From: Thermoplasmatota archaeon
Lineage (GTDB): Archaea > Thermoplasmatota > Penumbrarchaeia > Penumbrarchaeales > Penumbrarchaeaceae
Reading direction: 5' to 3'
Assembly (NCBI GenBank): GCA_029762535.1
Contig: JARVGK010000009.1
Span: 41,759-105,758, forward strand
Length of the DNA stretch: 64,000 bases
In this document: positions 29,512-30,555 of the stretch, piece by piece
Layout of the letters: every line of letters begins with the position of its first letter
Position numbering within the stretch: the stretch's first letter is position 1
Made by a program: the position numbers and the translations under genes
The notes under the pieces: model-generated
The model's database searches: none
What the model saw: only the letters and a program-made list of their open reading frames with translations
What the model was told of the DNA's origin: nothing

Positions 29512-29643
29512 CAAGAGATCCCGGGGATCCTCGGAGGCGTCGCTAGGTATATATATTACGTATTCCCATACCATACCTGAGGATCCAGGACCTTTCCCCG
29601 GGGCCGTTACCATTCCGCGGGGGAAGGTCTCCTCGAACTCTCT
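29512..29643 (-). ncRNA. Structured 5' leader, copy 1 (candidate cis-regulatory RNA)
   Basis: TCGAGGAGACC-stem-GGAATGGTAACGGCCC-stem-CCTGGATC shared with the 30407 gene leader; lies between TATA and RBS. Confidence 0.6.
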
Positions 29644-29665
29644 ACTTCTTACATGACCTTACCTA

Positions 29666-29724
29666 CTTATAAGCTATACCCATCAAGTTATAGGTTTTTA
29701 GAGGGTTATATATAATTTTTCCAT
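29666..29724 (-). promoter_or_regulatory. Shared upstream block, copy 1
   Basis: GGAAAA-ATTATATATA-ACCCTCTA-AAAACC-TATAACTTGA...CTTATAAG. Confidence 0.65.
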
Positions 29725-29866
29725 CCTACAAAGGGGAAATACCTTTTGCCAGCAAAGTGTAGCGGATCCCTGACCGACGATGATATAGCTTCCTTTCTGT
29801 CGGCATGGTCAACGGATCCCCGAAGCGCATAATCCAAAGATGATGAGATCATCCCATAGGATCAAC

Positions 29867-29903
29867 AAAAATAAAAAAAAATGGGCCGGAGATATTCCGG
29901 CCC
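29867..29903 (-). terminator. Hairpin + T-tract terminator of the ATP-cone gene
   Basis: GGGCCGGA/TCCGGCCC stem followed on the minus strand by a long T run. Confidence 0.75.
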
Positions 29904-29924
29904 GGGGTTTTTAGGGGGGCTATC

Positions 29925-30407
29925 TCATGCTTCGGCCATCTTCCTAACGGCCACCAACGAAGAGCCGCTGACCTCAAGGAAGCCCAGATCGCTTCTTCCG
30001 AGGTATATCGCATTGCTCTTGTAGTGCGGGTCCTCGATCCTGTAGGCCCTCAGGGCCTTCCTGTTCCATCCGCTGTAGGCCTCAACCACCTGGCCGTTCT
30101 TCACGCCGAGCCTATCCATGGTCTCGGGAGACATCAGGCAGTTCCCGTTGATCCCCGTTACGCTGGGGTCGATCTCCAGGTCCCTGGTCGTGAAGTACCT
30201 CCTTGCGAGTTCGGGATCTATCTTCTTCAGAGAGGTTCCGATCCTCCTCCTCACATCCCGCGTGGTCATTCCCTTTTTGAAGCCGACAGCCTTCACTACG
30301 TTCCTCGCGGTCCCCTTGTCCACGCCGAGAACGATCATCGACCTCATCATCTTCGCCCTGCTGTACCTCTCTATGCTGCCGTCCATCTTCCTTATCGTCT
30401 TCACCAT
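29925..30407 (-). CDS. ATP-cone domain protein with C-terminal double-psi-beta-barrel-like domain
   Basis: IRKMDGSIERYSRAKMMRS..MTTRDVR (ATP cone); two MSPETMDRLGVKNGQVV / LGRSDLGFLEVSGSSLV half repeats; ATG 30407 with AAGGTGA RBS. Confidence 0.7.
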   Translation of the reverse strand: MVKTIRKMDGSIERYSRAKMMRSMIVLGVDKGTARNVVKAVGFKKGMTTRDVRRRIGTSLKKIDPELARRYFTTRDLEIDPSVTGINGNCLMSPETMDRLGVKNGQVVEAYSGWNRKALRAYRIEDPHYKSNAIYLGRSDLGFLEVSGSSLVAVRKMAEA

Positions 30408-30422
30408 TTCCTTCACCTTCCT

Positions 30423-30555
30423 GAAGGGTCGCGGAGAAGGAAAAGGCGGAGGCTCCGCTCATCGAGCAAAGCTGGTCATCTCCGCCTTGTGAGATCCAGG
30501 CCCACTCCCCCGGGCCGTTACCCATTCCGGGGAGAGAGGTCTCCTCGACCACCTC
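30423..30555 (-). ncRNA. Structured 5' leader, copy 2 (candidate cis-regulatory RNA)
   Basis: TCGAGGAGACC-stem-GGAATGGGTAACGGCCC-stem-CCTGGATC; closing stem GGTCG/CGACC; inner stem AAGGCGGAG/CTCCGCCTT. Confidence 0.6.

Follow-up and report, generated by a model that had tools for sequence, protein, structure and literature searches.

A structured 5′ leader RNA family upstream of a conserved micropeptide gene in Candidatus Penumbrarchaeia

We analysed a 64,000-nucleotide stretch of contig JARVGK010000009.1 from a Thermoplasmatota archaeon (the window), in which two copies of a structured 5′ leader RNA had been predicted from the nucleotide sequence. Our analysis reveals that this leader is a real, previously uncatalogued archaeal RNA family and a member of no family tested, and that it mostly precedes an unannotated micropeptide gene. 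The structure of the leader, the selection acting on it, its position and its gene linkage are documented below by computation. In the reading that we put forward, to which we give an even chance, it is a cis-acting and probably protein-bound 5′ leader of the micropeptide unit that holds the ribosome-binding site open.

Fold, selection and distribution of the leader

The common fold is a three-way junction of the helices P1, P2 and P3: the first 8–10 bases of the transcript pair with a pyrimidine tract just 5′ of the Shine-Dalgarno (SD) sequence to give P1, P2 is the hairpin of the original prediction, and P3 begins right after P2 and bears a variable arm. Leader copy 1 (29514..29643, minus strand) was delimited by its fold with the SD held open, by its TATA spacing and by its identity with the orthologous locus L024; its P1 comprises 29634–29643 with 29514–29523, its P2 arm 29587–29633 and its P3 29579–29586 with 29525–29532. 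Leader copy 2 (30423..30556, minus strand) has the same junction core with a different P3 arm, as supported by its folds, its identity with L024 and the covarying homologue L026. The two copies are real, exhibiting a common 5′ block, a stem that varies yet remains paired, a common 3′ block and a second, variable arm, and a search of the window for their loop pattern gave exactly two occurrences, both on the minus strand, where none would be expected from 100 shuffles. A third copy was absent from the 2.96 Mb genome when this was searched with a model built from both copies. The closing stem ends shortly before the SD (~10 nucleotides (nt) in copy 1, 1–2 nt in copy 2). With a TATA box 29–30 nt 5′ of the first base of each element, the elements would lie between transcription start site and ribosome-binding site, the predicted starts coinciding with the 5′ ends of the elements. 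Of the two genes that the leaders precede, the first is an unannotated 33-residue open reading frame (ORF). The promoters of the two copies are paralogous as well: the pair hence arose by duplication, and the two copies are not independent evidence.

As had been anticipated, the elements fall outside known families: an Rfam 15 search of the window gave no match at gathering score over either element and, at E ≤ 10, only a 13-bit chance match to snoR9, while a search with the homologous leaders at ten other loci returned nothing. Resemblances to SAM-I, cobalamin, ykkC, yybP, c-di-GMP and HDV motifs were in no case backed by Rfam.

Covariation among homologues is present. In an alignment-free swap test across 11 lineages, each of P1, P2 and P3 paired better with its cognate strands than when the strands were swapped (p ≤ 2e-4 each); most controls fell short of significance, with p = 0.03–0.90 for 11 non-pairing segment pairs and 0.045–0.16 for reversed partners. 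In a model-fitted alignment 83.6% of cells were paired, compared to 44–62% in slid-register controls, and two-sided changes were found in 23 of 27 pairs; such an alignment is biased toward structure, a bias that the swap test avoids. The folding z-score against shuffles was negative in all 17 folded leaders, with a mean of -3.2. Two other structures were rejected. An alternative fold from RNAalifold, in which the purine block of the 5′ side pairs, around a 5-nt bulge, with the strand that follows the junction, had a mean probability of 0.06 and was dominant in one homologue only, and is retained as a possible folding intermediate; kissing between loop and arm failed the swap test (p = 0.55–0.84).

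Across the family, conserved sequence is restricted to the junction, with an AGGAG purine block on its 5′ side and CYU-RRAUCC on its 3′ side, giving a conserved core of ~15 nt at 79% that is mostly paired. Between the window and L024, neutral divergence amounts to 31% at 507 four-fold sites; leader copy 2 is identical to its L024 orthologue at 143 of 144 positions (p ~1e-22 against the neutral rate) and copy 1 at 59 of 60 positions in the 5′ domain and 52 of 54 in the 3′ part, the P3 arm alone having drifted. Judged by this comparison, the leader is under strong purifying selection.

Iterated peptide and RNA models were used to collect leaders and peptide loci, complemented by syntenic loci from two metagenome relatives of the 160-residue protein encoded behind copy 2. 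This afforded 17 peptide loci in 12 genomes, along with 18 homologous leaders that span five genera; these genera belong to a single Thermoplasmatota family of uncultured sediment archaea in the class Ca. Penumbrarchaeia/EX4484-6. A peptide of 26–45 residues follows 15 of the 18 leaders, whilst the other three, all from this genus, precede an ATP-cone-like gene. Four weak RNA-model matches within the family are genuine, since each lies 5′ of the same small peptide. The related loci are labelled Thermoplasmatota, some of them EX4484-6, and the 16S rRNA of the genome holds both primer sites designed for Ca. Penumbrarchaeia (PMC12220078); a second, divergent archaeal 16S fragment on an 803 bp contig (G000:C76) is probably bin contamination. 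With strict filters the RNA was not found in a phylum sample of 134 genomes outside the family, nor was the peptide convincingly found in 377 genomes. A scan of the collections with a tetratricopeptide repeat (TPR) alignment gave just two short metagenome loci, and literature searches for the leader/peptide system found nothing. Several candidates were discarded: the exact loop pattern gave nothing in 60 relatives, since the loop varies; four viral-contig loop matches without stems were chance; the weak model matches L064, L065, L069 and L102 and the peptide match L106 lay inside coding sequence or were without the core; and a loop look-alike in the 5′ untranslated region (UTR) of an RDD-like gene (G000:C58:28592) was not conserved in five relatives.

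Expression platform and apical loop

All 18 leaders end just 5′ of an SD and, with the start predicted, begin 27–33 nt 3′ of a TATA box; a second TATA-like box lies 41–45 nt further 5′ at 16 of the 18 loci. In the window, the double-TATA block of copy 1 occupies 29665..29720 (minus strand), with its TATA box at 29665–29672 and the second box 44 nt upstream, and that of copy 2 occupies 30579..30632 (minus strand); two further genes of the cluster described below have similar blocks in front of them. The SD of the 33-residue ORF (29496..29503, minus strand) could pair in copy 1 with a candidate anti-SD at 29533–29538. Mean SD accessibility is predicted to be 0.63 for native leaders; it falls to 0.26 on blocking the 5′ strand of P1, and shuffles give 0.32. 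In 8 of 17 leaders the folds with open and closed SD are within 3 kcal/mol of each other. A hairpin and pyrimidine tract within copy 2 (30446–30458) scores as terminator-like; the U-tract is not kept in all homologues and attenuation is hence unsupported family-wide.

The apical loops of P2 were located by loop pattern and loop identity comparison at 29601..29616 in copy 1 and 30512..30528 in copy 2 (both minus strand). Among paralogues of one genome, available in three genera, the 17-nt apex is 93% identical, compared to 69% for the stems and 61% for the P3 arm, while between genera apex identity is 50%, which is the background level. The loop had been proposed as a conserved, aptamer-like core: given this difference between genera, and with family-wide conservation residing in the junction, that part of the prediction does not hold. 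Going by these alignments, the apex is constrained and yet lineage-specific. This points to a recognition tag particular to each lineage more than to a pocket for a ligand, and a macromolecular partner evolving together with the loop would account for it better than the binding of a metabolite, although recent duplication or gene conversion within genera could contribute to the pattern.

The micropeptide and its gene neighbourhood

The unannotated ORF behind copy 1 (29389..29490, minus strand) has a strong SD and a conserved C-terminal motif, and a terminator-like GC hairpin lies 3′ of its stop codon (29351..29376, minus strand), as similar hairpins do after most homologues. The peptides share their C-terminal 15 residues, ending R-L-x-N-x-Y-P-x-R-W-P-R-C; their N-termini are acidic or polar, with no hydrophobic segment, transmembrane helix or signal sequence on inspection, and no family match was found in Pfam, NCBIfam or Atlas. 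Differences at the three codon positions number 210, 154 and 329, many of them synonymous; this third-position bias indicates that the peptide is protein-coding and under coding selection. Directly beyond the terminator, 29153–29345 is a hairpin-rich dispersed repeat of 110–200 bp with at least eight genome copies at 74–94% identity; it is missing at the same site in L024 and thus resembles an insertion of a miniature inverted-repeat transposable element.

A protein of 454 residues with a winged helix-turn-helix and TPRs (wHTH-TPR; 32333..33697, minus strand) is the constant neighbour of leader-peptide units: 13 of the 15 assessable peptide loci lie within ~3 kb of a gene for a ~450-residue wHTH-TPR or a ~200-residue caspase-fold protein, in several orientations. 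As far as gene context can tell, the peptide is therefore an unannotated, conserved one tied to a cluster of regulator and caspase-fold genes. The TPR superhelix of the regulator matches peptide-binding TPRs, those of LGN and Rap alike, with a template modelling (TM) score of 0.45 for Rap-pheromone. The genome holds ~8 wHTH-TPR genes, most paired with a caspase-fold gene, and only that of the window has leader and peptide; some close relatives of this regulator elsewhere also occur without them. Besides the window, G000 contigs C7, C8, C14, C26, C27 and C50 carry such genes, and in pairs without the peptide the caspase-fold protein has a hydrophobic, signal-like N-terminus. The window encodes two caspase-fold proteins on the minus strand, identified by alignment and fold: one is without the catalytic His and Cys positions (30654..31247), and the other, of caspase/legumain fold, keeps the His and lacks the Cys of the DxCxSG position (31385..31993), matching caspase-11 in Foldseek (E = 2.9e-4, TM score 0.54) with a model of moderate confidence (predicted local distance difference test 68). 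No aligned caspase-fold member has a Cys at the nucleophile position.

The gene behind copy 2 encodes a 160-residue ATP-cone-like and double-psi-barrel-like protein (29925..30407, minus strand). Both matches are weak and below the Pfam cut-off (18 against 25.8 bits for the ATP-cone), and the Atlas cluster of the protein carries the same two families. The original prediction had taken this gene to suggest a nucleotide signal. ATP-cone homologues in 11 other family genomes are without the leader, a search for leaders 5′ of such homologues in other genera gave none, and most leaders precede the micropeptide instead: since the leader sits on the ATP-cone gene in this genus only, the suggestion of a nucleotide ligand fails.

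Other arrangements of these parts were also seen. At L044:1384-1455 (G022) the leader of the peptide gene has been reduced to its P1 stem and represents a minimal variant found in nature; at L039 (G012:C38, upstream of 5086) a peptide unit that has lost its promoter as well as the leader's 5′ half is fused directly behind the caspase-fold gene; and at L072 and L073 (G004:C4, G010:C35) the module of regulator, caspase-fold gene, leader and peptide is tandemly duplicated beside a thermosome gene, syntenic with the window. An 85-residue ORF between regulator and first caspase-fold gene (31998–32255) has its own double-TATA block and is conserved in L024 without belonging to a family; a Fic-domain protein with a C-terminal excisionase-type HTH (27071–27982) is likewise conserved in L024.

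Mechanism, rival explanations and significance

In the mechanism that we propose, the unit would consist of a double-TATA promoter, a leader of ~130 nt, the SD, the 26–45-residue peptide and a hairpin terminator, and would belong to a cluster with the wHTH-TPR regulator and the Cys-less caspase-fold proteins. Folding of P1, P2 and P3 would engage the pyrimidine tracts, shield the 5′ end and free the SD, switching translation on; were P1 not formed, the SD would be occluded. The junction and the lineage-specific apex would be read by a macromolecule acting in trans, most probably one of the proteins that the cluster encodes, and this partner would set the balance between on and off. In this genus, promoter and leader would have been duplicated 5′ of the ATP-cone gene, bringing that gene under the same control. 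Partner, switch and direction of control are what we infer here; the leader would work like a protein-responsive leader, and the riboswitch and nucleotide readings are weakened.

Several observations weigh against this mechanism. The covariation tests are underlain by ~11 independent lineages, and transcription, start site and translation are all model predictions. The predicted ground state of copy 1 is not the junction: the SD-closed fold is favoured by 2.7 kcal/mol. Cognate anti-SD and SD strands have no pairing advantage over swapped ones (p = 0.73), so that the data reveal an SD-freeing fold and not a selected switch, and with P1 blocked, SD access drops merely to shuffle level. The retention of P1 alone in G022 and the missing 5′ half in G012 show that the peptide gene can persist in the absence of a complete leader. 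Furthermore, apex similarity does not track TPR similarity, with the genus of closest TPR (53%) exhibiting a different apex.

The first alternative to be weighed is a dual-function RNA, whose structured 5′ domain would act in trans through protein titration or through target pairing via the apex, with the peptide as second output; we consider this rather unlikely. A short transcript predicted to stand alone between a promoter and a terminator of its own, at most three copies per genome and an exposed apex homogenised within genomes would suit such an RNA. RNAIII/delta-haemolysin, SgrS/SgrT and, in archaea, sRNA154 of Methanosarcina mazei (PMC12612679) similarly combine a short structured RNA with a small peptide, here of 26–45 residues, and like them the unit is probably downstream of a dedicated regulator. 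However, the leader has also been recruited 5′ of the ordinary 160-residue gene, which is the behaviour of a cis-element, the whole of the structure is 5′ of the ORF, with an SD following closely on its end in every case, and no trans target was found: sites matching or complementary to the apex did not exceed control counts in the own genome or in four others, a search in which short seeds would be missed. Less probable again is a constitutive scaffold, in which the fold would do no more than shield the 5′ end and display the SD so that expression is high, with no regulated switch: it accords with an SD predicted to be open in most homologues, an unselected anti-SD and the minimal G022 leader, but leaves unexplained the near-invariant junction bases, the near-identity of copy 2 with its orthologue and the greater conservation of apex than of stems between paralogues.

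The original prediction was of a riboswitch- or attenuator-like leader, and in this a structured 5′ leader with covariation has been borne out, whereas the aptamer loop, the nucleotide signal and the selected anti-SD switch have not. A novel metabolite- or ion-sensing riboswitch with a pocket at the junction and P1 as switching helix now appears improbable, slightly more so than the scaffold, even though position and architecture fit, the covariation is real and the on and off folds are near-isoenergetic in about half of the homologues. The 5′ position, a P1 beside the SD and covarying stems are shared with archaeal fluoride/crcB and TPP (thiamine pyrophosphate) riboswitches and with multi-helix-junction riboswitches; here, by contrast, there is no Rfam match, about a dozen bases are conserved and most lie in predicted helices, the loop put forward as the core differs from genus to genus, no pocket of many invariant unpaired bases is seen, and the motif is limited to one family without a metabolic gene theme, its ATP-cone link being genus-specific. 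Riboswitches are moreover scarce in archaea, those for TPP and fluoride being the main ones (PMC5473149).

It is very improbable that the leader imitates the uS15-binding h20/h21/h22 junction of 16S rRNA, in the way that archaeal S15 ribosomal-protein leaders (r-leaders) do: the middle strand of its junction agrees with that of the host 16S at ~7 of 9 positions, and the CG/CG pairs at the end of P1 are also shared, but all 17 of 17 leaders lack the GA linker that joins h22 and h20, four nucleotides are inserted where the rRNA has none, and no ribosomal gene (rpsO) follows. The base corresponding to what we take to be G654 of the 16S junction also varies. S15 leaders imitate this junction or stacked G-C/G-U pairs (PMC7247131), and the S15 type uses a three-stem junction, as here; archaeal r-protein leaders in general (S15, eL15, L4; Eckert and Weinberg 2020, PMC7247131) are likewise lineage-restricted structured 5′ UTRs thought to be protein-bound, the leader described here differing in its lack of an Rfam match, in the micropeptide downstream and in the missing key rRNA-junction bases. 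A neutral remnant of a recent duplication of promoter plus leader, as the promoter similarity of the two window copies might suggest, is refuted by homologues in five genera, by covariation and by conservation far above the neutral rate, leaving this explanation the smallest probability of all. Type I toxin-antitoxin mRNAs also carry a small ORF behind a leader able to occlude the SD, in several copies per genome; here the peptide has no transmembrane helix, the SD is predicted to be open in most homologues and no antisense RNA was identified.

Beyond the protein-bound cis-acting leader, the unit might form part of an undescribed archaeal peptide-signalling circuit with gating at the RNA level. 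The wHTH-TPR protein would drive the double-TATA promoters, the micropeptide would feed back via the TPR or Cys-less caspase-fold proteins, and a cluster protein would read the lineage-specific apical loop and toggle translation; we regard such a circuit as rather unlikely. RRNPP and arbitrium systems (Rap-Phr, AimR-AimP; PMC9232636) similarly place a DNA-binding domain with a TPR superhelix beside a small peptide gene with conserved C-terminus, but the system here is archaeal, has a winged HTH rather than an XRE-HTH and a peptide without signal sequence, its TPRs score like those of eukaryotic LGN as much as of Rap, and it further includes a structured leader along with the caspase-fold genes.

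The known cis-regulatory RNAs of archaea form a small set, made up largely of riboswitches for fluoride and TPP together with four leaders of ribosomal-protein genes (PMC5473149, PMC7247131), and Ca. Penumbrarchaeia is the class with the most unknown genes in its phylum (PMC12220078). Our findings add an archaeal motif supported by covariation, unusual in combining a conserved junction with a loop that is constant within genomes and switched between genera, and expose an unannotated conserved micropeptide tied to a regulator/caspase-fold cluster. With an RNA of 130 nt, a peptide of 33 residues and three neighbour proteins, the system is small enough for tests in vitro or in a model archaeon, for which culture of the host would not be needed.
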